Shown: one piece after another, positions 750 to 61,228 of the stretch
Numbering within the stretch: the stretch's first letter is position 1
How the letters are laid out: the number at the start of each line of letters is the position of its first letter
Assembly: GCA_003568415.1 (NCBI GenBank)
Contig: PWXV01000155.1
Location: forward strand, 17,114-81,113
Origin: Ignavibacteriales bacterium
GTDB taxonomy: Bacteria; Bacteroidota; Ignavibacteria; T3Sed10-11
Reading direction: 5' to 3'
Length of the DNA stretch: 64,000 nt
Program-made: the position numbers and the translations under genes
Notes under the pieces: model-generated
Told to the model about the DNA's origin: nothing
Databases searched by the model: none
The model's input: the letters and a program-made list of their open reading frames with translations, nothing else

Positions 750-2483
750 TTATGAAACGGCTTTCAGAACAAGAGCGGTAATATCATCTGATTGATTATC
801 TGGATCGGCAAATTCCTGAACTGAAGCGAAAATATCGTCTAGCAATGATCCGGCACTCTCACACTCATTATGAAGCATCACATTCTCGATCCGCTCCTCA
901 CTGTACTCTTCGTTTTCTGCATTCATTGCCTCGCTCACACCGTCGGTGAACATTACCACCGTATCTCCGGGATCTAAATGAATGATCTCGTGTTCATACG
1001 TTATCATCGACCGTACAACTCCAAGAATCATTCCCCCTTTATCAAGCCGGCGAACTGTCCCGTCAGCTTTGCAATAAAACGGATGATTGTGACCGGCATT
1101 TACGTATTTTAAAGTATTATCTTCGGTGTTCAGTATTCCCCAGAAAAATGTTATGAAGTTGTCGGCAGAGGTATTATCATAGATGAGATCATTCACTCGC
1201 CCTGTCGCATCGGCAATTGTAATATCGAGTGGAGCAAGAGCACGGATGGTTGCCTGTAAGTTTGCCATTAACAGTGCGGCGGGCGTCCCCTTCCCTGATA
1301 CATCAGCTATGACAAGTAAATACCGGTGATCATCTAATTGCACTATATCGAAGTAGTCTCCTCCTACCTGCCTTGATGCAATAGTCTTCGCGGCTAATTG
1401 ATACCGCGGAATTGCTGGAATCGACTTCGGGAGCAATCCCTGCTGAATTTGATGTGCAATTTTCAGCTCTTCCTCAAGACGTTGTTTCTCAAGTGTCTCT
1501 TCAAAGAGCCGGATATTCTCCATCGATATCATTGCGAGATTACCGAGTGAAGAAAGAAACTCAAGATCCTTTTCTGAATAAGGAGCACCGGTCATTCGTT
1601 TACCGAGCAACATGACTCCTCGTGTTACACCCTGAATGGTCATCGGTACAATTACCGATATAGCATAATCGTCCAAACAACGATAGGTGTCGGGTTCGAA
1701 TGTATCCGGGCTATCCGTAACAATGACAGGTTTTATACACCGTAATAAATCGTGAAGCACGGTTTGCTTTACCTCTTTTACCGGCAACCGGGATGCAATC
1801 ACTTCACACCGATCATTCTCTTTTACCGCGATAAGATACCGATTGGTACCGAGATGGCCGAGCAGAGAAAAGACCAGAACTTTTATAAGCTGTTCCCGTT
1901 CAATAACGGCACCGAACTCTTTACTCATTTCGAATAACGTATTCAGTTCCTGGATTCTGCTGTCAAGATTTCGATTTGCTTCCTTTAATTCTTCGAGAAT
2001 GGATGTCTTTTCAATTGCCGTTGCTGAAATATTGACAAGTGAACGGAAGAATATTTCTTCAGATGGGCTGAACTGTTGTTCACCGATACGCTTGCCAAGA
2101 CACACAATTCCGATAAGTTTACCGCGTACTGTCAGGTCAAGAATATGGGTAAGTCCGCTATTCTGTAAACGTGTTAGCCATGGGAATTGCTGATAATCGT
2201 GTGAATGAATACTAATTTGCATTTCCGGTTCAGGAGAGATTTCCAGATGTTCTTGTTCCCGTATGTCGTGTATTCCCTTCGCTTTCGCCACACGGTACGT
2301 GGTACCATTTTCCCGGAGTAATATTAATCCGCGTGTAAAACGGAGTTTTCCCATGAGTGTGTAGAGAACATTATTCAGAATGAAATCGATATCAAACGAT
2401 GAGTTGATTGTGCGGGTAAACTCAACGAGTGGCTGTAATTCAAATGGTGATGATGTTTGTGTATTTTGGTTTACTACCGACAT
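750..2483 (-). CDS. GAF-domain PP2C-type Ser/Thr phosphatase (RsbU/SpoIIE family)
   Basis: The C-terminal SpoIIE/PP2C motifs GGDYFD, DVSGKG and FTDGVSEA are intact. N-terminal GAF-like region. Coiled-coil linker. Confidence 0.8.
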   Translation of the reverse strand: MSVVNQNTQTSSPFELQPLVEFTRTINSSFDIDFILNNVLYTLMGKLRFTRGLILLRENGTTYRVAKAKGIHDIREQEHLEISPEPEMQISIHSHDYQQFPWLTRLQNSGLTHILDLTVRGKLIGIVCLGKRIGEQQFSPSEEIFFRSLVNISATAIEKTSILEELKEANRNLDSRIQELNTLFEMSKEFGAVIEREQLIKVLVFSLLGHLGTNRYLIAVKENDRCEVIASRLPVKEVKQTVLHDLLRCIKPVIVTDSPDTFEPDTYRCLDDYAISVIVPMTIQGVTRGVMLLGKRMTGAPYSEKDLEFLSSLGNLAMISMENIRLFEETLEKQRLEEELKIAHQIQQGLLPKSIPAIPRYQLAAKTIASRQVGGDYFDIVQLDDHRYLLVIADVSGKGTPAALLMANLQATIRALAPLDITIADATGRVNDLIYDNTSADNFITFFWGILNTEDNTLKYVNAGHNHPFYCKADGTVRRLDKGGMILGVVRSMITYEHEIIHLDPGDTVVMFTDGVSEAMNAENEEYSEERIENVMLHNECESAGSLLDDIFASVQEFADPDNQSDDITALVLKAVS

Positions 2484-2537
2484 GGAATGATAAAAATATT
2501 ATATTTTCAATGGGGCTCTATAAAAATCGTATCACGA

Positions 2538-2975
2538 TTATTGTAAATACTTGGTTAAAATAACCCGGTTCTTTCTTCCCGGCTGGATTTTATATTCAAC
2601 TTTATCCATAAGTGATTTCATCAGATACATACCGAATCCGCCCCGTTTATAGCTTTTTATGTGTTCTTTCATATCGGGCATTTTGATAGCATCGGGTTCG
2701 AACGGCATCCCTTGATCCTCAATCATTATCTCAAAAGTATTATTCCGTGCTTTCAATCTCAGGTGAATAGGATAATTCGAGGCATTTTTATAGGCATGCT
2801 TTATTATATTCGTACAAGCTTCATCGACAGCGAGAGTTATTTTACTTACTTCATCATCACTAAAACCGAATTTTTTAGCTTCATCGGAAATAAATGCTCT
2901 CACCTTATTCAGGTACGATGTCTTGCTTTGTATGGTTAATTCTTTCAAGTTATTTGATTCTGTTTTCTGTTTCAC
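2538..2975 (-). CDS. Anti-sigma regulatory factor / Ser protein kinase (RsbW/SpoIIAB-like, HATPase_c)
   Basis: 145 aa. HATPase N-box region AVDEACTNIIKHAY. Size and position next to a STAS protein. Confidence 0.75.
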   Translation of the reverse strand: MKQKTESNNLKELTIQSKTSYLNKVRAFISDEAKKFGFSDDEVSKITLAVDEACTNIIKHAYKNASNYPIHLRLKARNNTFEIMIEDQGMPFEPDAIKMPDMKEHIKSYKRGGFGMYLMKSLMDKVEYKIQPGRKNRVILTKYLQ

Positions 2976-3021
2976 GATTATTGGTTCTCCTGAACCGTCA
3001 TCTAGTACGAAAAATCAATCG

Positions 3022-3381
3022 TTATTCTGACTGAACACTATTGAATTTTTCAATCGCTTCGCCCTCCTGTTTGAATATCTCATAAAGCAGCGGGAAGCCG
3101 AGCAGATCAAAGACATTATAGACCTTCTGCGACATATTGGAAAATTTTATATCGCCTTTTTGCTCGCGCACATCTTCAACAAATGCCATAAATACACCGA
3201 GTCCGGCACTGCTGATATACGAGAGGTCGTTACAATTAACAACGATTTTATGATGACCCTTATTAATAAGGTCCTGAAACGTTTCTTCGAGTTTCGGTGC
3301 GGTATGTGCATCGAGATAGCCCTTCAGTTCTAACACATGCACCGGATTCTCATTCCGGACCTTTATTGAAAAATCACTCAT
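3022..3381 (-). CDS. STAS-domain anti-sigma-factor antagonist (RsbV/SpoIIAA-like)
   Basis: 119 aa. STAS fold signature around DLSYISSAGLGVF, with a phosphorylatable Ser. Confidence 0.75.
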   Translation of the reverse strand: MSDFSIKVRNENPVHVLELKGYLDAHTAPKLEETFQDLINKGHHKIVVNCNDLSYISSAGLGVFMAFVEDVREQKGDIKFSNMSQKVYNVFDLLGFPLLYEIFKQEGEAIEKFNSVQSE

Positions 3382-3415
3382 GCTAAAATCTCCTTGCTTA
3401 TATATACGAAACTAT

Positions 3416-5548
3416 TCATCCTGAGTTTCTTTTTAAGATAACAATTGTTATATCATCATCAAAAGAATCACTGCCGGTAAATGCTGAAATCTCATCCAAA
3501 ATGAGCGAACGCAGCTCACGCGGACTCTTTTCCTTATGTTTTGTGACCAGCGTCACAAGCCTGTCCGTGCCGAATTCTTCACCATCCGATTTTCTGGCTT
3601 CGGTTACTCCGTCGGTATAAAATACACAAACATCACCAACGGAAATCGGTATTTTTTCTTCTTCGATAACTTCATCGAATAACTCTGCACCGGTCAAGCC
3701 GAGACCTATACCATTTGGTTTATGCAGTTTTACCGTACCGTTATGCAGATTCATCATCGGACAGTGCCCCGCCCTCGATAAATGCATTGAATGATCGGAA
3801 GTATCAACAATAGCATAAATTAACGAAATAAATGCACTTTTATCAATACTGCCATATAAGGCATTGTTAGCTTTAACCAGGAATTCGGCCGTCGAGGTAC
3901 ACGATTTGCTTAATGCCTGAAATATACCTTTGAGTTCAGCCATATAAAACGCTGCAGACACGCCTTTCCCTGAAACATCACCTATCACGACACCGAGTCT
4001 GTTAGAATCGAGTTCGATTACATCATAATAATCTCCGCCAACTTCAAATGCCGGTGCAGAGAAGGCATCCAGCTCAAATCCTTTCGGTTCGGGCAGTCGT
4101 TGCGGCAACAGCTTCTTCTGCACTTTTTGTGCAACCATGAGTTCCTGTTGCAACCGCTCCCGCTCTATAGATTGTTCGATGAGCCGGGAGTTTTCGATTG
4201 CAATTGAAACGTGATCGGCAAAGGTCGAAATCAGTTCGGTTTCTTCCTTATCGAATCCGAATTCCATGGTTTTCGCGGCATAGAGAATACCGATCATCTG
4301 CTCCTGAGATACAAGCGGTACACCTATTAAAGAACCTATATTTTTCACTGAACGACTGATATCACGAGTCCGCCTGTCACGAACAAATTCATCGATAACG
4401 ACCACTTTTTTAGTTTCGATAATATGCCGGCGAAGTCCGGTTTCCGGATGTGTTATTATATCAATTTCAGCCGGTTCAATATTTTTAAGGGCAACGAGTT
4501 CGAATTCCATAGCACCATCACCGGCATCATTCTTTTTAATTACCTCAAGCCAGGCGCTGCGGGCTTCGGTAACTTCAATAGTCAGATTTGTAACCGTCTG
4601 TACCAGGTCTTTGAAGTCAAATACCCGGGTAATTAATCGGCTCAGATTGTGTACCGAACTCAACTCAATACGTTTCCGGTCGAACGCCTCTGCGGTCGGC
4701 AAATGGAATAATGACACAACAAAGCTCATACCGAAATAAATCACACTGAATATGGCAATAATACGCACAAAATATTGCAATGGATAATGATAATACAATA
4801 AGCTCCGGTTTATGAAACCACTCTCGGTCAGTGTGACATTGAGAATGATAAACAGGACAAAAAGCAAGAAACTATATCCGATGCTGTATAATTTTTCACG
4901 TTTTGAAAGGTATACTATCCACGTAAATTTAAACGAGTTGGCAATGCCGGCAAAAATCGCTATAACAAAAAAGACAAATGATGTGGTCGTACTTTCGAGC
5001 GGTTCTTGATTCCAGACAGAGAGTGAGGCGATACCCAGGATGACCAGAAATATTATTAAATTTCTCTTGGTGCCCTTTCGTTGTTTAATGAATATAAGCT
5101 GAGCAATGGTATATAATAATATAATTGCAACTATACCTGTGAATATGCTGACAATATTTGCAAAGAATATAGTAAGATAATCGGTCGGAATGAGTTGCTT
5201 TTCAAGTGCTTCAAACCCATTAATAGAGATCAATGCAATTACGAGCGACATTGCCAGGAAGGAAAGCAAGGTCATAAAAATAATCCCGAATAGACGGAGT
5301 GGATTCACCGATCTCCTGGGCATGATCGATTGCAGAAATATGTATAATCCGATAAATGCGAGTACAACAAAGACATTGCGGAGTTGTGAGATCAATCCGA
5401 GATCGATTTCCAGGTTTTTATGCACTGCATCGATTATAAAAACTATCAAAAACAGTACACCTGCACCCGTGACAGACACTGCTCCGCTTATTTTCGTTTT
5501 TATAATATGTGCAATAGATTGTTTCATCATACCCGAAGTTTTTTCCAA
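3416..5548 (-). CDS. Membrane-anchored sensor PP2C phosphatase (multi-TM N-terminus + GAF + SpoIIE domain)
   Basis: About 7 predicted TM helices in the first 300 aa. A GAF-like region follows, then the PP2C motifs GGDYYD, GDVSGKG and YTDGVTEA. The true start is probably the internal MMKQ, which would avoid the 22-nt overlap with the upstream MATE gene. Confidence 0.8.
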   Translation of the reverse strand: MEKTSGMMKQSIAHIIKTKISGAVSVTGAGVLFLIVFIIDAVHKNLEIDLGLISQLRNVFVVLAFIGLYIFLQSIMPRRSVNPLRLFGIIFMTLLSFLAMSLVIALISINGFEALEKQLIPTDYLTIFFANIVSIFTGIVAIILLYTIAQLIFIKQRKGTKRNLIIFLVILGIASLSVWNQEPLESTTTSFVFFVIAIFAGIANSFKFTWIVYLSKREKLYSIGYSFLLFVLFIILNVTLTESGFINRSLLYYHYPLQYFVRIIAIFSVIYFGMSFVVSLFHLPTAEAFDRKRIELSSVHNLSRLITRVFDFKDLVQTVTNLTIEVTEARSAWLEVIKKNDAGDGAMEFELVALKNIEPAEIDIITHPETGLRRHIIETKKVVVIDEFVRDRRTRDISRSVKNIGSLIGVPLVSQEQMIGILYAAKTMEFGFDKEETELISTFADHVSIAIENSRLIEQSIERERLQQELMVAQKVQKKLLPQRLPEPKGFELDAFSAPAFEVGGDYYDVIELDSNRLGVVIGDVSGKGVSAAFYMAELKGIFQALSKSCTSTAEFLVKANNALYGSIDKSAFISLIYAIVDTSDHSMHLSRAGHCPMMNLHNGTVKLHKPNGIGLGLTGAELFDEVIEEEKIPISVGDVCVFYTDGVTEARKSDGEEFGTDRLVTLVTKHKEKSPRELRSLILDEISAFTGSDSFDDDITIVILKRNSG

Positions 5549-19023: not shown

Positions 19024-20115
19024 ATGACAACACAAGTAGAAAATTATGTAACACCAAAAATCGAAACAAATATCGAAGAACATCTCGGTAAAGATGGAAC
19101 AAAAGATCTTCTTGACTATACCTGTAAAGGGATTGCAAAAGAAACCCTGACGTTACCCGGACCGGATTTTGTCGATCGCGTATTCGCACAGACAGATAGA
19201 AACATCAATGTATTAAAAAACCTGCAATGGATCTACAAAACAGGCCGACTTGCAGGAACAGGCTACCTCTCGATACTTCCGGTGGATCAGGGCATAGAGC
19301 ATTCAGCCGGGGCATCATTTGCCCCCAATCCGGTATATTTCGACCCTGAGAACATCGTTAAGCTGGCCATTGAAGGTGGATGTAATGCTGTTGCATCAAC
19401 ACTCGGTGTCCTCGGCAGCGTAGCACGAAAATATGCGCATAAAATTCCATTCCTCGTAAAGTTAAACCACAACGAGTTGCTCACCTATCCGAATAAATAT
19501 GATCAAATTATGTTTGGCAATGTTGAGCAGGCCTGGAAAATGGGTGCAGCAGCCGTAGGGGCAACGATCTATTTCGGCTCTGAAGAATCATCACGACAAA
19601 TTCAGGAAGTGTCCGAAGCATTTGCATATGCACACGAACTCGGGATGGTCACCGTGTTATGGTGCTATCTGCGTAACCCGGCATTCAAACAAAACGATAC
19701 AGACTATCACGTTGCCGCCGATTTAACAGGGCAGGCAAATCACCTCGGTGTAACCATCGAAGCCGATATAATCAAACAAAAAATGCCCGAGAACAACGGC
19801 GGATATAATGCAGTTAAGTTTGGTAAGACACACAAGAAAGTATATGATGAATTAGCAATCGATCATCCTATTGAATTGACACGATACCAGGTAGCAAATT
19901 GCTATATGGGACGTGCGGGTTTAATTAACTCAGGCGGACCATCCGGTAAGGATGACTTTACCGAAGCTGTAAAAACCGCAGTTATCAACAAGCGTGCAGG
20001 CGGTATGGGATTGATCTCAGGCCGTAAAGCATTCCAAAGACCTATGAGTGAAGGCGCGAAATTATTACACGCTATTCAAGATGTGTATTTGTCGAAAGAT
20101 ATTACAATAGCATAA
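19024..20115 (+). CDS. fbaB: Class I fructose-bisphosphate aldolase (FbaB/DhnA type)
   Basis: Near full-length similarity to recalled E. coli FbaB ([62 protein letters not shown]). AAAGGAGGG Shine-Dalgarno site upstream. Confidence 0.9.
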
Positions 20116-23258: not shown

Positions 23259-23918
23259 TTAATCCATAACTCTGCGGACTGCAGTGACCCGCCTTTGAAA
23301 ATAGGTGCTTTCGAGTGATGATATAGTCACTCCGTTTGAAACCGATGCATGGGCGAATAAATTATCGCCGATATATATACCAACGTGTGAAGGATTCTGG
23401 CCGGTTGTATTAAAAAATATCAGATCGCCAAACTTCCTCTCAGACATTTGCACCCGGCGTCCCATCCGGTATTGTTCAATAGTAGACCGGGGTAATTCAA
23501 TATTCATCGAGTTACGGAATACCGTTGAAATGTACGCAGAGCAATCTATTCCGTCAGATCCTGTGCCGCCGAGCCGGTATGGTGTTCCGATATGCCGGAG
23601 GATTTCCTGCAATAATCTCGTCTCCTGTCGTGTCGGGTGAACGATACGGCTCTCCACACTTGCTACCTCAACTTTTACATCATCTTCACGACGCTCTTCA
23701 CGTGCTGCCTGCTGAAGTTCTCGTGAAAACCGGACTGATGTATCACGAGATGTTGATTCCTTTCGGGTTTCTTCCGACTGAGCAAAGCGGGGAGAACCGC
23801 TGCCACATCCTGCAGCGATTATGAGGAGGCTAAACACAAGTACTATGGAAACAACCGGTTTCATATCTTTAAAATAAACATCCCGACAGTTTGTTGCAAC
23901 TGCCGGGATGTCTTCCAA
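23259..23918 (-). CDS. NlpC/P60 (C40) family peptidoglycan endopeptidase, lipoprotein
   Basis: Signal peptide with Cys. C-terminal GIDCSAYISTVF (catalytic Cys) ... HVGIYIGDNLFAHAS (His). Confidence 0.8.
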   Translation of the reverse strand: MEDIPAVATNCRDVYFKDMKPVVSIVLVFSLLIIAAGCGSGSPRFAQSEETRKESTSRDTSVRFSRELQQAAREERREDDVKVEVASVESRIVHPTRQETRLLQEILRHIGTPYRLGGTGSDGIDCSAYISTVFRNSMNIELPRSTIEQYRMGRRVQMSERKFGDLIFFNTTGQNPSHVGIYIGDNLFAHASVSNGVTISSLESTYFQRRVTAVRRVMD

Positions 23919-24856: not shown

Positions 24857-25138
24857 TTACTTAGTTTCAATGACTTCGGGATCGATACGGTCGACTATTG
24901 CAACAATTGCTGCATCGACGGGTGCAAACCTATCTGGAAGCGGTATCGTCGCCTCACGGGCCGTAATATAGCAGATTGTCTCACCACTGCCGGCTCCGAT
25001 CGTGTCAACGGCAATAATCGGTGCTCCCGCAGGAGAACGGCCTGAATCAATAGGCTGCACAATTTGCAATTTCAGATTTTCAAGCGCCGGATTTTTCCGG
25101 GTCGCCCATATCGTTCCGATAACTCTGCCGAAGAACAT
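24857..25138 (-). CDS. Bacterial microcompartment vertex protein (BMC-P; EutN/CcmL/PduN family)
   Basis: 93 aa. MFFGRVIGTIWATRKNPALENLKLQIVQPID ... IIAVDTIGAGSGE ... PVDAAIVAIVD matches the PF03319 signature. Confidence 0.8.
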   Translation of the reverse strand: MFFGRVIGTIWATRKNPALENLKLQIVQPIDSGRSPAGAPIIAVDTIGAGSGETICYITAREATIPLPDRFAPVDAAIVAIVDRIDPEVIETK

Positions 25139-25176
25139 ATGTAGTATACGTTTATGTTAATGTATTGTTTCTTCAA

Positions 25177-25446
25177 TTAATCGGACAAATCAAGCTTGTC
25201 AACAATTGCCATAATGACAGCATCGACCGGCTTATTTTTGGTTACGTCAGTCTGACGTGCTGAGCTACCGCTTGCAACCAACACTACCTCACCAACACCG
25301 GCCCCGACACTATCAACCGCTACGACATACTGATCCTTCAGACGATAATCAAGATCAACATGACGTACAATAAGGAATTTCATGCCGGTGAGATTTTCAT
25401 CTTTTCGCGTTGCCCAGACCGTGCCGATAACTTTTCCGAGAATCAA
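25177..25446 (-). CDS. Bacterial microcompartment vertex protein (BMC-P; EutN/CcmL/PduN family), second copy
   Basis: 89 aa. MILGKVIGTVWATRKDENLTGMKFLIVRHVD ... VVAVDSVGAGVGEVVLVASGSSAR ... PVDAVIMAIVD. Confidence 0.8.
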   Translation of the reverse strand: MILGKVIGTVWATRKDENLTGMKFLIVRHVDLDYRLKDQYVVAVDSVGAGVGEVVLVASGSSARQTDVTKNKPVDAVIMAIVDKLDLSD

Positions 25447-25461
25447 TGTAATTTTCCTGTT

Positions 25462-26655
25462 TTAAACCACTTTTTGAAATACGTTATAAAAACTCGTTCC
25501 ATCCATCTGACTTCTTACTTCGGATGAAATCGAAAAATGTTCCGCACATGTTTGTGCTATATCCGCAAATGTAGATCGAACTCCTACATCCCTACCTTCT
25601 GCCATCCCTTTTAAACTTGCGAGTAAAAAAGCATACTCGCGGGAATGATCTGTGCTTGGTGTTGTCGGGTCATTGCCGTGATCACTGGTTAATATGAGCA
25701 GGTCATCGTCACGCATTGTCCCGGTAATTTCGGGTACCGCCTTATCAAATTCTTCCAGCGCACGGGCAAATCCCTTGGAATCGTTCCGGTGTCCGTATTC
25801 CTGATCAAAATCAACAAGATTTGTAAACACAAACCCTTTATCAAGGTTTTTCACGGTATCGATTAATTTTTTAATTCCGATTGTGTTGCTTTTTGTGTGA
25901 ATATATTCCTGAATCCCACGACCGGCAAACAGATTGTCGACCTTACCGATTGTCATCGTGAAAATATTATGGTCGATTAGATGATCGAGCAATGTTTTCC
26001 TCGGTGGTTCAAATGAGAAATCTTTTCTGTTGGCAGTTCTTTCAAACGCACCGGGTTCACCGACAAACGGACGGGCAATGACCCTGCTTACAGTGTGCTC
26101 ATCGATCATTATTTTATTACGCGCGATCTCGCACCACTCATATAGACGTTCGAGCGGTACAACTTGTTCGTGTGCTGCTACCTGAAATACCGGATCTGCC
26201 GATGTATATACGATCGGATAACGGGTTTCCATATGTTTTTTCCCCAGCCGGGAAATTATTTCAGTACCCGATGCCGGCACATTACCGAGAATACCGCCGC
26301 AACCGGTCCGATTAATAAATTCTTCTACAATAGTATCGGGAAATCCTTCAGGGTATAATGCAAAAGGTTTTTTTGTTATGAGTCCCGCTATCTCCCAGTG
26401 TCCCGTAGTGCTATCCTTGCCCGCAGATTGTTCCGTTAACTTACCGAAAAAAGCGTCTGGATTATCAACCGGAGGAACACCACGCACCGGGGCAATATTT
26501 CCTAATCCAAGCTTCTGTAGATTCGGTAGAGAGAGTCCGCCAACCGCTTCTGCGACATTTGGCAATGTTGCACTGCCGCTATCACCATACGCATCTGCAT
26601 CCGGGAGTTCACCCACTCCCACACCATCGAGGACGACGAGGAAGCAGCGTTTCAT
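25462..26655 (-). CDS. deoB: Phosphopentomutase
   Basis: 397 aa. MKRCFLVVLDGVGVGELPDA N-terminus and the metal-binding core typical of DeoB (alkaline-phosphatase superfamily). Confidence 0.85.
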   Translation of the reverse strand: MKRCFLVVLDGVGVGELPDADAYGDSGSATLPNVAEAVGGLSLPNLQKLGLGNIAPVRGVPPVDNPDAFFGKLTEQSAGKDSTTGHWEIAGLITKKPFALYPEGFPDTIVEEFINRTGCGGILGNVPASGTEIISRLGKKHMETRYPIVYTSADPVFQVAAHEQVVPLERLYEWCEIARNKIMIDEHTVSRVIARPFVGEPGAFERTANRKDFSFEPPRKTLLDHLIDHNIFTMTIGKVDNLFAGRGIQEYIHTKSNTIGIKKLIDTVKNLDKGFVFTNLVDFDQEYGHRNDSKGFARALEEFDKAVPEITGTMRDDDLLILTSDHGNDPTTPSTDHSREYAFLLASLKGMAEGRDVGVRSTFADIAQTCAEHFSISSEVRSQMDGTSFYNVFQKVV

Positions 26656-26657
26656 TA

Positions 26658-26855
26658 TTAATTATAAATTTGCTTTTCGTTACACTTACAAACGCGTATA
26701 TGGCGTTCACCAAATTTATACGCACCTGTTTTCTCAGATTTTTCTGCCGATACATGGAGAAAAAAAGAGAATTCCGTTTCACATTTCGGACAGATTGATT
26801 TCGATCTTCTCTGTCCTTTGGTTGCTTTATCAGCAAATGTTTGACTTTTTGCCAT
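26658..26855 (-). CDS. Small basic Cys4 zinc-ribbon protein (hypothetical)
   Basis: 65 aa with CPKC ... CKCNE and a basic N-terminus. Tightly packed 2 nt upstream of deoB on the same strand. Confidence 0.4.
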   Translation of the reverse strand: MAKSQTFADKATKGQRRSKSICPKCETEFSFFLHVSAEKSEKTGAYKFGERHIRVCKCNEKQIYN

Positions 26856-26891: not shown

Positions 26892-28838
26892 TTAATAAAC
26901 TCGCACAATATTGCCGCCATTTTCAATAGCTTTTTGTAATGCAGCAACTGCGTGCTGTGAAAGTTCGACAAACTGCATATCTTCCGTTATTCCGCATACT
27001 CCAGAACTAACGGTTATCGAGGTAGTTTTGTCATTTACTGTTATTACCTGGCTTGCAAAATTCTTACGAACTTTTTCAGCCCATAAATATCCCTCATTTG
27101 CAGTGGTATTTAATAACACAACTCCAAATTTGTTATAATCAAGCCGACCGAGCAGATCATATTGCCGTACAGAATTCTTAAGAAATTGACCGAAAGAATA
27201 TATAGCATTATCCAACCCCTCTTTGCCATGCCGATCAATCAATTGCTGCATGTTATCGATGGAAAATACAGAGTATGTCAAATCATGGCCAAAATCATCG
27301 GCCCGCCTTATTTCCTCCTTAAGCCGCTGTTCGAAATAACTTTTTTTCAGCAATCCGGTGGTATCGTCGATTATCACATACTTATCAACCAATTCAGACA
27401 TATAGAGTATTTCCAATGCTGATGCTATGTTTTCTACCAACCGGTAGAGCACTTCGATATCGCGTGCTGAATATCCGGAACGATCGCGTCGTTCAAGGCT
27501 CACCGTACCATAACATTTTTTAAACGAACTTACCGGTGCTATTAAAATCGAGCCGTCACTATCGATTTTTTCTTCTCCATTAAAACGCGGTATCGTAACC
27601 GTCGATAAATCATCGACAAGGAGATGTTTGTTTGAATCGAGCACCGCGCCGACCAGACTATTCTCTAGATCAACTATTTGGTGCGGTGCAATATATGTAC
27701 CGTCCTTTGCTATATCAACATGATAAATTACCCATGCCCGTTTGTCATCATTAAACATGGTAACGGCTAAGTAATCATAGCCGATCAATCGTTTTGTTTG
27801 TTCAATCAATGCCCGTACAATAGTCCGAAGTTCTAATTGCTCACGAATGGTCTCGTGCATCTTCCGAATTGAGAGTACAAGTTCTGAATCAACCAAAAGG
27901 TCGTATTTCTCAGTATGACTTTTGATCAGCGCTGCAAGTAACTTTGTAAACTGACTCAACAATGCCAGTGTTTCAGACCCAAAAGCATCTTCGGCTTTAC
28001 TATCAATTGCAAGGACTCCGACAACAACTTTCTCCCCATCGCGTCCCTGATAATGTACCGGCACGCCGATAAAGGATTTTACAAAATCAATATCTTTATA
28101 GTACCGGAGTACATCCCGCTCCGAACTCGGACTAATGTGAGAAATAAATTCCGGTTTGCCATTGCGTGCAATTTGACTGACCACATCATTCTCGAGTGGT
28201 AATTTCCGATCAGGGACAAGATTGTGACTATCGCTTGCCCTTCCCTGGAATACCAGTTCTTGTTTTTCAAAGTTCGTCCAGAAAAACGCTACCGTGTGTG
28301 CTATCAGCGATTCCTTTATGGCAGTAAGGACTTTGCCGAGTAAAAACTCAAATTCACTTCGCGGTTCACTGCTGCTCGGAAAGTTCTCAGATTCAAGATC
28401 AAAAAACTGCGTCAAATGCGCCTCAGTAAGTCGTGTTTTTTCTCCCGCCGATTTCGATTTTTTAATGTCGTTCATTCCACCAACTTCCGGTGATCGATCT
28501 TTATCATCTTCAGTATGAAAGGCGGTTGTATCATCAAACTCATTTTCTGCTGAATTCGCCTGCAAGGCAGACTCTTCATCCTCAAGACTCTGATCAGTTC
28601 GTTCAATTGTTTTGTGATGTAAACTATCAGGGGTTAATCTTGCAGCAAGCGAAAAATAAACATACCCCCATAAACCGACAGAAATGAGAATGACGGCGGT
28701 AATAATTATTGCAGAACCGCTATATATACCAAATATTAATAAAATAGCACCAATTGCAACAAGAATACCTTCTTTTGCGGTAAGGGCGCTCAATACATCT
28801 TTAATGGTGGTGTTTCCGGATGATACCGCCATGCGCAA
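26892..28838 (-). CDS. Membrane-anchored GAF-GAF-GGDEF-like protein with degenerate A-site (DYNKF instead of GGDEF) and retained I-site RxxD
   Basis: Two N-terminal TM helices, an acidic linker, then GAF-like regions. C-terminal GGDEF fold (SVFSIDNMQQLIDRHGKEG ... RQYDLLGRLDYNKFGVVLL). Confidence 0.7.
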   Translation of the reverse strand: MRMAVSSGNTTIKDVLSALTAKEGILVAIGAILLIFGIYSGSAIIITAVILISVGLWGYVYFSLAARLTPDSLHHKTIERTDQSLEDEESALQANSAENEFDDTTAFHTEDDKDRSPEVGGMNDIKKSKSAGEKTRLTEAHLTQFFDLESENFPSSSEPRSEFEFLLGKVLTAIKESLIAHTVAFFWTNFEKQELVFQGRASDSHNLVPDRKLPLENDVVSQIARNGKPEFISHISPSSERDVLRYYKDIDFVKSFIGVPVHYQGRDGEKVVVGVLAIDSKAEDAFGSETLALLSQFTKLLAALIKSHTEKYDLLVDSELVLSIRKMHETIREQLELRTIVRALIEQTKRLIGYDYLAVTMFNDDKRAWVIYHVDIAKDGTYIAPHQIVDLENSLVGAVLDSNKHLLVDDLSTVTIPRFNGEEKIDSDGSILIAPVSSFKKCYGTVSLERRDRSGYSARDIEVLYRLVENIASALEILYMSELVDKYVIIDDTTGLLKKSYFEQRLKEEIRRADDFGHDLTYSVFSIDNMQQLIDRHGKEGLDNAIYSFGQFLKNSVRQYDLLGRLDYNKFGVVLLNTTANEGYLWAEKVRKNFASQVITVNDKTTSITVSSGVCGITEDMQFVELSQHAVAALQKAIENGGNIVRVY

Positions 28839-59716: not shown

Positions 59717-60097
59717 CTACCCCGGAGGCCAGGTCATACGGCGTCCGCCCATAATATGCAGATGCAGATGCGGAACCGTTTGCCCGCCATTCACACCATA
59801 ATTCACCACAAGCCGGTAGCCATCCTCGTCTATTTTATTTTTTTTAGCTATTTTTTGGGCAATAAGCACCATTTTACTCATTAATTCAGTATCATCTTGT
59901 TTCATATCCTGAACAGAATCAATATGCTTTCGCGGAACGATCAACACATGTACCGGCGCCTGCGGGTTGATATCATTAAAGGCAACCAGCTCATCATCCT
60001 CATGAACAATATCACTTTTCATCCGTTTATTTACAATCTCACAAAAAATACAATCTGCCATCAGGAATTCCTCCTTTTCGGTATTGTTATGATTCAC
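59717..60097 (-). CDS. HIT (histidine triad) family nucleotide hydrolase
   Basis: HVPHLHLHIMGG histidine triad. 126 aa. Confidence 0.85.
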   Translation of the reverse strand: MNHNNTEKEEFLMADCIFCEIVNKRMKSDIVHEDDELVAFNDINPQAPVHVLIVPRKHIDSVQDMKQDDTELMSKMVLIAQKIAKKNKIDEDGYRLVVNYGVNGGQTVPHLHLHIMGGRRMTWPPG

Positions 60098-60744
60098 TTA
60101 ACGAATCTTTTTTCGATATCCATTACTTTATCAACTCGCTTCTTATGTCTTCCGCCACTGAACCATGTATTGAGAAAAATATTCACGACCCCCTTGGCAA
60201 CATCTATACCTATCCCCCTGCTGCCGAGTGTCAATACATTTGCATCATTATGTTCACGACTGTTCCTTGCAGTAAATTCATTATAACAGCAAGCCGCACG
60301 AACCCCCGGCACCTTATTCGCAGCCATACTCGAACCGATCCCCGCACCATCGATCATAATTCCACGCCAAGCTTCACCTTTCGCGACCGAATATGCAACC
60401 GCATACGCGAAATCAGGATAATCACACGACTCTTCAGAATACGTACCGACATCCATTACTTCATAACCGAGGTCTTTTATATACTTACTCAGCTCAGCTT
60501 TCATCGTAAAACCGCCGTGATCTGAGCCGATTGCGACGACTCCACCTTTTTCCTTAACCGGCCTGTTTGTTGATGGGGCTTCTTTTTCCGGTGGTTTATC
60601 GGTAGATAGTTCTATTTGTAAATGTAATGCTCTGTCCCGGGCAGCCGGTGTAATGATATCATTATCATGTACATACAGAACCCTGCAACCTTTTTGATGC
60701 GCGTCATTTATGGTCTGTTCTGTAATTAGTTTTCTGGTCATTAG
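60094..60744 (-). CDS. rpiB: Ribose-5-phosphate isomerase B (RpiB/LacA/LacB family) with ~70-90 aa N-terminal extension
   Basis: C-terminal 150 aa carries GSDHGGFTMKAEL ... GIGSSMAANKVPGVRAA ... the RpiB signature. The N-terminal extension LITEQTINDAHQKGCRVLYVHDNDIITPAARDRA is not part of canonical RpiB. Start placed at the internal MTRK (60744) to avoid the 59-nt overlap with the upstream gene. The ORF track extends it to 60807. Confidence 0.7.
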   Translation of the reverse strand, partial: LMTRKLITEQTINDAHQKGCRVLYVHDNDIITPAARDRALHLQIELSTDKPPEKEAPSTNRPVKEKGGVVAIGSDHGGFTMKAELSKYIKDLGYEVMDVGTYSEESCDYPDFAYAVAYSVAKGEAWRGIMIDGAGIGSSMAANKVPGVRAACCYNEFTARNSREHNDANVLTLGSRGIGIDVAKGVVNIFLNTWFSGGRHKKRVDKVMDIEKRFVK

Positions 60745-60748
60745 TATT

Positions 60749-61228
60749 CTATTGTTGTTCGCCCCATTCGAGAACTTCAAGCCGGACGCGGGCTGTACCG
60801 GATTCAATCATATCGATCCGGCGTGCCGCACCGAGCGACAGATCAATTATTCGGCCTTCTACAAACGGGCCCCGGTCATTAATTCGAACAATAACATTTT
60901 TGTCATTCGTCAGGTTTTGAACCCGAATGATCGTATTGAACGGAAACGATTTATGCGCAGCAGTCATTGCATACATATCATACGATTCACCGTTTGCCGT
61001 TTGCCGGCCGTGAAAGTCATGTGCATAATAGGAAGCCACGCCCTCAACCGTCAATACCGCTGATCGACCGGCGTATTCCGACGGTTCACTTCTGTTGGTT
61101 GGCCGCTCAGTTCCGGTAAACCGCGGACTGGCAGTGCAACCATATAACAATGATAGCAGTAAAATAAGAAAAACTGTAATATAAACCCAACGCTCCATAG
61201 TCATATCCTGATAATTACAATAGATCAT
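60749..61228 (-). CDS. rlpA: RlpA-like double-psi beta-barrel lipoprotein (septal ring lytic transglycosylase family)
   Basis: GVASYYAHDFHGRQTANGESYD ... ASYY...G..TA.GE DPBB motif. N-terminal TM/lipobox. Confidence 0.75.
   Translation of the reverse strand: MIYCNYQDMTMERWVYITVFLILLLSLLYGCTASPRFTGTERPTNRSEPSEYAGRSAVLTVEGVASYYAHDFHGRQTANGESYDMYAMTAAHKSFPFNTIIRVQNLTNDKNVIVRINDRGPFVEGRIIDLSLGAARRIDMIESGTARVRLEVLEWGEQQ

Follow-up and report, generated by a model that had tools for sequence, protein, structure and literature searches.

What are two vertex proteins of a bacterial microcompartment (BMC) shell doing beside the gene for the housekeeping sigma factor, with no other shell gene in sight? 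The question is posed by a stretch of 64,000 nucleotides from an Ignavibacteriales bacterium (GenBank assembly GCA_003568415.1, contig PWXV01000155.1, positions 17,114 to 81,113 of the forward strand), which we call the window throughout, and in which two small adjacent genes of the BMC-P family, here P1 and P2, lie between deoB, the phosphopentomutase gene, and rpoD. Our answer is that P1 and P2 are probably two of the three vertex pentamers of a shell of the FRAG1 type, that the BMC-H genes of this shell would lie elsewhere in the genome, and that the pair would be transcribed together with the gene for sigma-A and hence expressed constitutively. What such a shell might hold is a harder question, and here we have a tentative proposal, which turns on a ribose-5-phosphate isomerase (in short, RPI) encoded about 35 kb from the pair and on a small module at its N-terminus that resembles a segment of the protein EutQ.

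That both open reading frames (ORFs) are BMC-P genes, as a sequence-only reading of the window had claimed, is borne out by matches that run end to end along the 83 positions of the PF03319 profile, against a gathering cut-off of 25 bits (scores and coordinates are collected in Table 1). The same reading was right that the two are co-directional and packed between deoB and rpoD: the gaps are 15 nt from deoB to P1, 38 nt from P1 to P2 and 62 nt from P2 to rpoD. P1 and P2 are 41% identical to each other. The best match of P1 in the PDB is 5V74, the BMC-P of the Haliangium ochraceum (HO) shell (94.9 bits, about 60% identity over 87 aa), to which P2 scores 59.9 bits; by its sequence, P1 stands close to a pentamer whose place at shell vertices has structural proof, and its own assembly into pentamers is predicted. 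When the pair is set against the BMC-P paralogues of a compact locus of the sugar-phosphate-utilising (SPU) type, L102, P1 goes with the canonical class and P2 with a divergent class of 88 aa (36%), and a third class (like L102_P96) has no counterpart in the window.

Why FRAG1? In the BMC catalog, a FRAG BMC is one whose shell genes are dispersed over as many as six places in the genome; it has a BMC-P triplet and, in most cases, lacks enzymes (Sutter et al. 2021, Nat Commun, PMC8217296). FRAG1 comprises 57 loci that encode shell proteins only, and it is most prominent in Ignavibacteria, with further members in Kryptonia, Bacteroidetes, Chlorobi and Rhodothermaeota (PMC8217296, Suppl. Data 2); its shell set is the BMC-P triplet plus two BMC-H, with a PduS/T pair in 24 of the 57 loci (PMC8217296). 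In the accessible part of the catalog, the green subclade 'viridian3' unites the BMC-P of the HO main locus with FRAG1 satellite BMC-P proteins of 90 and 98 aa from Ignavibacteria (PMC8217296), and we infer that P1 belongs to this subclade. P2 is presumed to be a grey- or orange-clade member of the triplet, and the presence of two classes in the window agrees with the catalog's rule, by which a grey or an orange member is always accompanied by a third paralogue. The phyla are the same, the shell genes likewise stand away from enzyme genes and are split over several places, and there are multiple BMC-P paralogues: the locus is another instance of the catalogued FRAG1 type and is ordinary for its lineage. 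Where it goes beyond the catalog is in its surroundings, since the catalog makes no mention of two BMC-P genes upstream of rpoD, of a deoB neighbour or of any candidate cargo, and reports no identifiable enzymes for FRAG1; in a literature search, the type came up in no paper but that of the catalog and its preprint. The likeness to HO also goes beyond the vertex protein and, as far as the accessible catalog entries go, the subclade it would share with P1, because HO too has three BMC-P paralogues, two of which are encoded apart from its main locus, in a satellite. The HO main locus, however, is clustered (BMC-H, BMC-T, BMC-P and aldehyde dehydrogenase, AldDH), whereas in the window the green-type P1 itself sits in a satellite pair beside rpoD.

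How general is this arrangement? Relatives of P1 at about 80% identity number in the thousands, those with names coming from Ca. Thermokryptus and from Ignavibacteriae, Chlorobi and Bacteroidota metagenome-assembled genomes (MAGs), and in a scan of a single genome for each species at least 548 stretches encode it. Our synteny counts refer to the best 80 of these loci by P1 similarity, with informative denominators of 74 or 78; all 80 are MAGs of the Fibrobacteres–Chlorobi–Bacteroidetes (FCB) group, labelled mostly as Ignavibacteria, Melioribacteraceae, Kryptonia, Bacteroidota, Chlorobiota and Rhodothermales. Type IX secretion genes (SprA, PorV, Por_Secre_tail) in the source sequence place our organism in the same group. 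P2 adjoins P1 on the same strand in all 78 informative loci, at a median gap of 2 nt, and in 69 of 74 loci no more than 500 nt separate P2 from the rpoD that follows (median 17 nt), which makes rpoD the most constant neighbour of the pair. By comparison, 57 of 74 loci have deoB no more than 1.5 kb upstream of P1, and Kryptonia and others lack it at the P1 site: a frequent companion, not a universal one. The order deoB–BMC-P–BMC-P–rpoD that the sequence-only reading had singled out is conserved, then, from P1 to rpoD, and only partly at its deoB end, where an AbrB/SpoVT-like and a PIN-like gene stand between deoB and P1 in most deoB-bearing genomes. The 15-nt junction of deoB and P1 in the window is a peculiarity of its lineage. 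That reading had also called the pair unusual for an FCB-group genome, a view that does not survive at least 548 species genomes: the pair is the norm in Ignavibacteria, Kryptonia, Melioribacteraceae, Rhodothermales and some Chlorobiota, and it had already been catalogued as FRAG1.

P1 is also almost as well conserved as sigma-A. Median identity across the loci is 84% for rpoD, 78% for P1 (a figure inflated by the choice of loci for their P1 similarity), 61.5% for P2, 55% for deoB and 52% for def, and because P1 and P2 exceed deoB and def in this way, both are, as judged from sequence identity, under strong purifying selection; orthologues of P1 keep to 88-101 aa. The link to rpoD is nevertheless not obligatory, because it is interrupted in Rhodothermales MAGs, which account for four of the five exceptions and have P2 and rpoD about 4.6 kb apart in L082, L084 and L085 and about 8.4 kb apart in L047. 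Shell genes were considered as the content of this insert and rejected on the strength of L085, the one case looked into, where unrelated housekeeping genes fill it: pcm, folP, one gene of the DisA_N type and one of the GH3 family (1149-5484).

At the other end of the pair, a FRAG1 BMC-H of 229 aa hidden in the 500-780 bp between deoB and P1 of relatives was likewise considered and rejected, the space being taken by the AbrB/SpoVT-like and PIN-like genes. This couple (about 100 and 140 aa, families assigned by eye) lies directly upstream of P1 in, for example, L009 (9073-9968), L033 (9252-9982) and L046 (9222-9934); that many species keep a toxin-antitoxin-like pair at a single site is unusual in its own right, and the window has no counterpart of it. 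L009 is of separate interest as a MAG labelled Ignavibacterium album that has P1-P2-rpoD, when the type strain JCM 16511 was listed with 0 BMC-P (Axen 2014); the type strain may be without the pair, the genes may have been missed in 2014, or the label of the MAG may be loose.

Where, then, is the rest of the shell? Not in the window: six-frame tblastn and a small hidden Markov model (HMM), with five BMC-H probes, found no BMC-H or BMC-T there (best E=2.7), and tblastn with real proteins from BMC loci found no AldDH, PduL, deoxyribose-phosphate aldolase (DERA), PduS, PduT or BMC-H. In this search the BMC-P probes matched P1 and P2, and the only other matches were of module segments in the PduL, EutQ and unk229 probes to the N-terminus of the RPI; the Pfam annotation of the remaining ORFs agrees in showing no further BMC gene. 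The sequence-only reading had stated that the 64 kb lack any BMC-H or BMC-T gene, acylating AldDH or PduL, and in these searches this stands. Shell genes just beyond the window can be discounted too, since the parent contig has none in the 10 kb past either end. A PF01791 'DeoC/LacD' gene 5 kb from the pair (19024-20115) was considered as a DERA and rejected, since it scores 669 bits with NF006707 (cut-off 327), which makes it a class I fructose-bisphosphate aldolase.

The relatives give the same picture. Within 10 kb on either side of the pair, the 80 loci (about 1.2 Mb) contain no BMC-H and no third BMC-P, and no BMC enzyme with the exception of a single DERA, to which we return below. A search for the BMC-H of the FCB group that set out from the PduT-like shell protein of a metagenomic locus, L098, reached only relatives from Hydrogenedentota and Lindowbacteria, a Firmicute EUT locus and a non-FCB SPU locus, and a BMC-H profile scan of metagenome contigs found none recognisably of the FCB group and no PF00936 match tied to a P1-bearing contig. 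Complete genomes help here. Chloroherpeton thalassium has three satellite-like loci with 2 BMC-H and 3 BMC-P, and Melioribacter roseus has 5 BMC-H, 1 BMC-T and 7 BMC-P in five loci (Axen 2014 Table S2).

We therefore picture a dispersed shell, in which pentamers of P1 and P2 would cap the vertices of an icosahedron and the two BMC-H, the optional PduS/PduT pair and the third BMC-P would be encoded elsewhere in the genome. The pair would be co-transcribed with rpoD, and in our organism also with deoB, so that its products would be made constitutively instead of being induced by a substrate; this is expected because the pair would share a transcript with a housekeeping sigma factor gene. A scan for promoters and terminators found nothing above chance and no terminator-like hairpin between the genes, with the qualification that it does not model FCB promoters. 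Constitutive expression has been raised before, as one explanation of satellite-like loci in Poribacteria and BRC1 (Axen 2014).

What might the shell contain? One lead is the RPI. Its gene most likely starts at the ATG at 60741 and encodes 215 aa (60094-60741, minus strand), this start being preferred because the conserved module begins there; the RpiB with an odd N-terminal extension that the sequence-only reading had noticed 35 kb away is real, with a 46-residue module and a linker ahead of the RpiB domain, and only its start has moved, from 60744 to 60741. (Automated calls begin instead at an upstream TTG (237 aa; 60742-60807), which gives a 59-nt overlap with the preceding gene, of the DPBB_1/RlpA-like kind, at 60749-61228 on the minus strand.) The extension is kept in all 120 of the best homologues, from Kryptonia and Ignavibacteria-like MAGs, and in alignments its N-terminal segment is conserved and the linker variable. 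The AlphaFold2 (AF2) model has a small N-terminal alpha/beta domain (beta-alpha-beta-beta-alpha-beta, with two helices), a disordered linker and a normal RpiB fold; solved RpiB structures align only from residue 68 on, and the motif IMIDGAGIG is aligned with ICGTG of the solved Clostridium thermocellum and Escherichia coli enzymes. At the position of the catalytic base of E. coli RpiB, Cys66, where the solved RpiBs have Cys, Asp stands in 17 of 17 and in 55 of 55 aligned homologues, and His99 is invariant.

This combination has been seen before. All RPIs of SPU BMCs have Cys66 replaced by Asp, keep His99, and carry an N-terminal targeting peptide with a long linker that annotation often misses; the SPU enzyme has negligible isomerase activity, forms a complex with DERA and has been proposed to act in packaging (Commun Biol 2024, PMC11585597). 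Read from its sequence, the RPI of the window bears both of these published hallmarks. It also occurs on one contig with P1-P2-rpoD, here 35 kb apart and again in the independent contig_17496, where the two stand at about 224 kb and about 34 kb.

The extension itself is likewise associated with BMCs. Its N-terminal segment gave a weak match to TIGR02536, a family of the eut operon, and a profile built from 116 RPI N-termini of the FCB group matched residues 2-47 of Salmonella EutQ with 34.3 bits (E 8e-7 at Z=1e6); the EutQ sequence used was validated against the EutQ equivalog (484 bits, full length). Modules of P0128 match the EutQ model at positions 8-51 (E 1e-7), and PduL and EutQ proteins that carry the module find the N-terminus of the RPI by plain tblastn, a metagenomic EutQ doing so at E 8e-5. 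In Salmonella, residues 1-99 of EutQ suffice to target GFP to Eut BMCs, and the shell proteins EutM and EutL are the proposed contacts of helices H1 and H2 (residues 9-41), with H3 and H4 binding the encapsulation peptides (EPs) of cargo (Sci Adv 2025, PMC12487888). The RPI module aligns with the part of EutQ that spans H1 and H2; the difference lies in what follows, which in EutQ is the EP-binding H3/H4 and a cupin acetate-kinase domain and in the RPI is a linker and the RpiB fold. We propose that the module binds the shell, or otherwise targets the RPI to a BMC. A literature search found no paper that links RPI to a EutQ-type module.

Where else does the module occur? In a comparison set of 80 BMC-H loci, an essentially random metagenome draw of 0.54 Mb with none recognisably of the FCB group, it is present on 19 ORFs in 18 loci, as against none in the 80 P1-P2 loci. 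Its hosts there are PduL and AldDH, at the C-terminus behind long linkers, EutQ, at the N-terminus, flavoprotein-like eut proteins, and small proteins made of modules only. In the FCB sequence that we examined, which amounts to 98 loci and 1.57 Mb, it is found on RPIs only. A single-sequence search of 1.84 billion representatives with the 48-aa module returned two genuine matches and three repetitive eukaryotic artefacts, its sensitivity being too low to give the full distribution. Both genuine matches are small proteins of two or three module copies and no Pfam family (L098 1-1020 and L099 2-1216, 161 and 245 aa); the gene of the first begins 34 nt behind one for a PduT-like tandem-BMC shell protein, and that of the second 7 nt behind eutQ. 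A folded module of this kind, roughly 45 residues long, may, beside the short amphipathic helices, be a common route by which core enzymes are attached to shells.

Several of these loci deserve a word of their own. PduL or AldDH proteins with one or two C-terminal modules behind low-complexity linkers are encoded at L132 5209-6384, L106 2224-3222, L171 1146-3191, L165 214-2049, L155 10524-12524 and L176 4515-6584. The shell protein of L098 is closest to proteins of Hydrogenedentota and Lindowbacteria. The compact SPU-type locus at L102/L103 5557-12560 (GCA_965347895.1) has four BMC-P genes, one of them for a protein of 216 aa with a C-terminal extension, and the gene that opens L102 encodes 229 aa without a Pfam match, with an EP-like N-terminus and a C-terminal EutQ-type module, and looks like a dedicated adaptor protein.

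The second lead is the DERA mentioned above. One Bacteroidota MAG, L013, has deoC 4 kb downstream of the pair, in the order GGDEF-small65-deoB-P1-P2-rpoD-NlpC-def-fmt-deoC. The enzyme is at the level of the deoC equivalog, its catalytic domain begins at residue 66, and the 65-aa EP-like extension in front of it opens with MDKQTILRLIEQVLNETN, an amphipathic helix. This N-terminus, we take it, resembles the classical encapsulation peptides of PduD and EutE. Among DERAs, only the BMC-associated ones are stated to have an N-terminal extension of about 70 residues, and a role of deoB upstream of the SPU substrate has also been noted (PMC11585597).

Could this be an SPU compartment, as the sequence-only reading had suggested in speaking of a fragment of an SPU-like system with its shell genes elsewhere? 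A fragment of a BMC system with its shell genes elsewhere remains the best reading, and the SPU-like idea gains some support: there are the two RPI hallmarks, with the N-terminal targeting extension and linker, an EP-bearing DERA in at least one relative, DeoB (the frequent neighbour) as the maker of the presumed SPU substrate, and, in the accessible catalog entries, a P1 clade, 'viridian3_mixed-spu', common to SPU3. The window, however, has neither DERA, AldDH nor PduL. SPU loci are compact operons of AldDH, DERA, RPI and shell genes, whereas nothing is clustered here and the gene for the RPI has housekeeping genes around it, at a distance of 35 kb; the extension of the RPI, moreover, is a folded EutQ-type module of about 46 residues, as opposed to the single amphipathic helix of SPU RPIs. 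Because the window and the 98 FCB loci show no AldDH or BMC-H with the pair, the locus falls outside SPU as defined, though it may work in a similar way.

How might it do so? In a dispersed SPU-like system, DeoB would supply deoxyribose-5-phosphate, an EP-tagged DERA would cleave it and release acetaldehyde inside the shell, and the Asp-type RPI would be tethered to the shell by its EutQ-type module and act mainly as a scaffold, a role suggested by the near inactivity of SPU RPIs and their binding to DERA. We hold this view of the compartment as a serious possibility that falls a little short of being favoured. Somewhat more tentative is the general picture in which FRAG1 is a constitutive, dispersed cousin of the SPU BMC, with cargo recruited by tags on enzymes encoded anywhere and not by membership of an operon.

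It is only fair to gather here the observations that weigh against us, some bearing on the shell and others on its content. Co-transcription is read from spacing only. The tie between P1 and the catalog entries consists of clade, taxon and length, with no sequence match to a catalog accession, and for the genomes that carry P1-P2-rpoD no BMC-H, third BMC-P or PduS/T was found within 10 kb of the pair, so that their co-occurrence rests on the literature. There, the entry for Ignavibacterium album JCM 16511 has 2 BMC-H but 0 BMC-P (Axen 2014 Table S2), which shows that the two families are not in every case reported side by side. The EP-HMM searches of FRAG genomes in the catalog were negative (PMC8217296). 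As for the SPU-like part, no acylating AldDH or PduL occurs in the 98 FCB loci, only one of these loci has an EP-bearing DERA, and the setting of the RPI (atpDC-alr-manC-rlpA-RPI) is a housekeeping one, in which the enzyme may be the ordinary, and perhaps the only, ribose-5-phosphate isomerase of its lineage.

What other explanations should be weighed? The pair might be no more than an ordinary satellite of a complete, clustered BMC locus elsewhere in the genome, such as the MIC4 (formerly PVM-like) main locus that Melioribacter roseus has besides its satellites, and MIC4 does occur in some Ignavibacteria (PMC8217296). MIC4 loci, however, carry a BMC-P triplet of their own (PMC8217296), the catalog marks M. 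roseus '2loci_inTaxon' and gives it a FRAG1 PduT-like satellite as well as MIC4, and Chloroherpeton has satellite-like loci only (Axen 2014). Set against P1-P2-rpoD in hundreds of species, Kryptonia included, and against the catalog's FRAG1 entries in Kryptonia and Chlorobi, such a dependent satellite seems improbable to us. We think it more improbable still that P1 and P2 are pentamers without a shell, their fold co-opted for a role tied to a sigma factor, a c-di-GMP cyclase and a cell-wall peptidase. The tight and widespread linkage to rpoD instead of to BMC genes would suit that idea, as would the lack of BMC-H within 10 kb in 80 genomes, and the listing of I. album with BMC-H and no BMC-P suggests that uncoupling is possible. 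Yet P1 keeps the canonical motifs along with its likeness to the pentamer of a solved shell, the accessible part of the catalog assigns BMC-P of this clade, of these taxa and of these lengths to a type with BMC-H genes, the complete genomes of Chloroherpeton and Melioribacter encode BMC-H, and the lineage's RPI bears a module of the BMC-targeting kind; a housekeeping neighbourhood, for its part, says little about function. For pentamers used outside a canonical shell, which the sequence-only reading had offered as its other option, we found no positive support.

A much closer contender concerns the cargo, and it leaves the FRAG1 shell itself untouched: the extended RpiB could be a housekeeping isomerase, its module unrelated to the pair, with FRAG1 having some other cargo. 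The RPI does sit in housekeeping neighbourhoods with no BMC gene nearby and passes the rpiB equivalog cut-off, and Mycobacterium tuberculosis RpiB is functional with Glu at the position of Cys66 (cited in PMC11585597). The module, too, has been mapped by one single-sequence library search and a limited number of loci, and hosts outside BMCs are possible. Against this stand the change of Cys66 to Asp together with an extension and linker, the exact pair of traits of all SPU RPIs (PMC11585597), the homology of the module to a EutQ segment sufficient for BMC targeting (PMC12487888), and its occurrence in unbiased samples, where it is found only on proteins of BMC loci (19 ORFs in 0.54 Mb), as compared with RPIs alone in about 1.6 Mb of FCB sequence. 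We regard a plain housekeeping role for the RPI as a live possibility, if not quite an even one, and for the pair itself we continue to prefer the dispersed, constitutively made FRAG1 shell.

Table 1. Features of the window discussed in the text (coordinates in nucleotides of the 64,000-nt window)
Feature	Coordinates	Strand	Evidence and remarks
P1, BMC-P (vertex pentamer type), canonical 'GSSARQ' class, 89 aa	25177..25446	-	PF03319 109.7 bits, E 1e-31, positions 1-83/83
P2, divergent BMC-P paralogue without GSSAR motif, 93 aa	24857..25138	-	PF03319 93.6 bits, E 1.1e-26, positions 1-83/83
deoB, phosphopentomutase	25462..26655	-	equivalog NF003766 511 bits; TIGR01696 464 bits
rpoD, short FCB-type primary sigma-70, 285 aa	23937..24794	-	Pfam Sigma70 r1_2, r2, r3, r4; best NCBIfam models RpoD
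RPI N-terminal EutQ-type module, residues 1-46	60604..60741	-	profile match to EutQ; AF2 pLDDT 81-90
RPI flexible Pro/Lys/Glu-rich linker, residues 47-67	60541..60603	-	length and sequence variable in 55 homologues; AF2 pLDDT <50 at residues 52-63
RpiB-fold domain, SPU type	60094..60540	-	PF02502 186 bits; TIGR01120 168 bits, passes rpiB equivalog cut-off
NlpC/P60 peptidase gene (context only)	23259..23918	-	PF00877 107.7 bits; after rpoD in most of 80 loci
65-aa CxxC...CxC zinc-ribbon-like protein, between GGDEF gene and deoB	26658..26855	-	DUF4295 weak, E 0.001, below cut-off
GAF-GAF-GGDEF protein, conserved upstream boundary of cluster (context only)	26892..28838	-	PF13185, PF01590, PF00990; upstream in 68/80 loci

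The remaining neighbours can be dealt with briefly. The 65-aa CxxC...CxC protein has no NCBIfam match, and its gene lies upstream of P1 in at least 32 of the 80 loci. Far from the pair and unrelated to it, the window also encodes a set of the partner-switching type (750-5548, minus strand), made up of two GAF-SpoIIE phosphatases, a STAS protein and a HATPase_c anti-sigma-like kinase. The sequence of the window is found again in ENA assemblies, in NCBI assembly GCA_003561255.1 and in a contig of 101 kb from JGI sample SL_1KL_011_SED, a name that we read as pointing to soda-lake sediment; the P1 locus occurs in Logan assemblies as well.

What would all this mean for the FRAG BMCs? They are found in many uncultured phyla, and the authors of the catalog list no known enzymes or function for them, so the linkage to rpoD, the tagged RPI and the tagged DERA appear to be unreported leads that make the function of FRAG1 testable. 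If our proposal is true, it would give the FRAG BMCs their first cargo and their first substrate, and it would make the H1/H2 module of EutQ a portable BMC-targeting domain, carried by RPI, PduL, AldDH and flavoproteins across BMC types. Such a module matters both for annotating BMC cargo encoded outside operons and for engineering shells, and with cultured relatives at hand in Melioribacter roseus and Chloroherpeton thalassium, the experiments are feasible.

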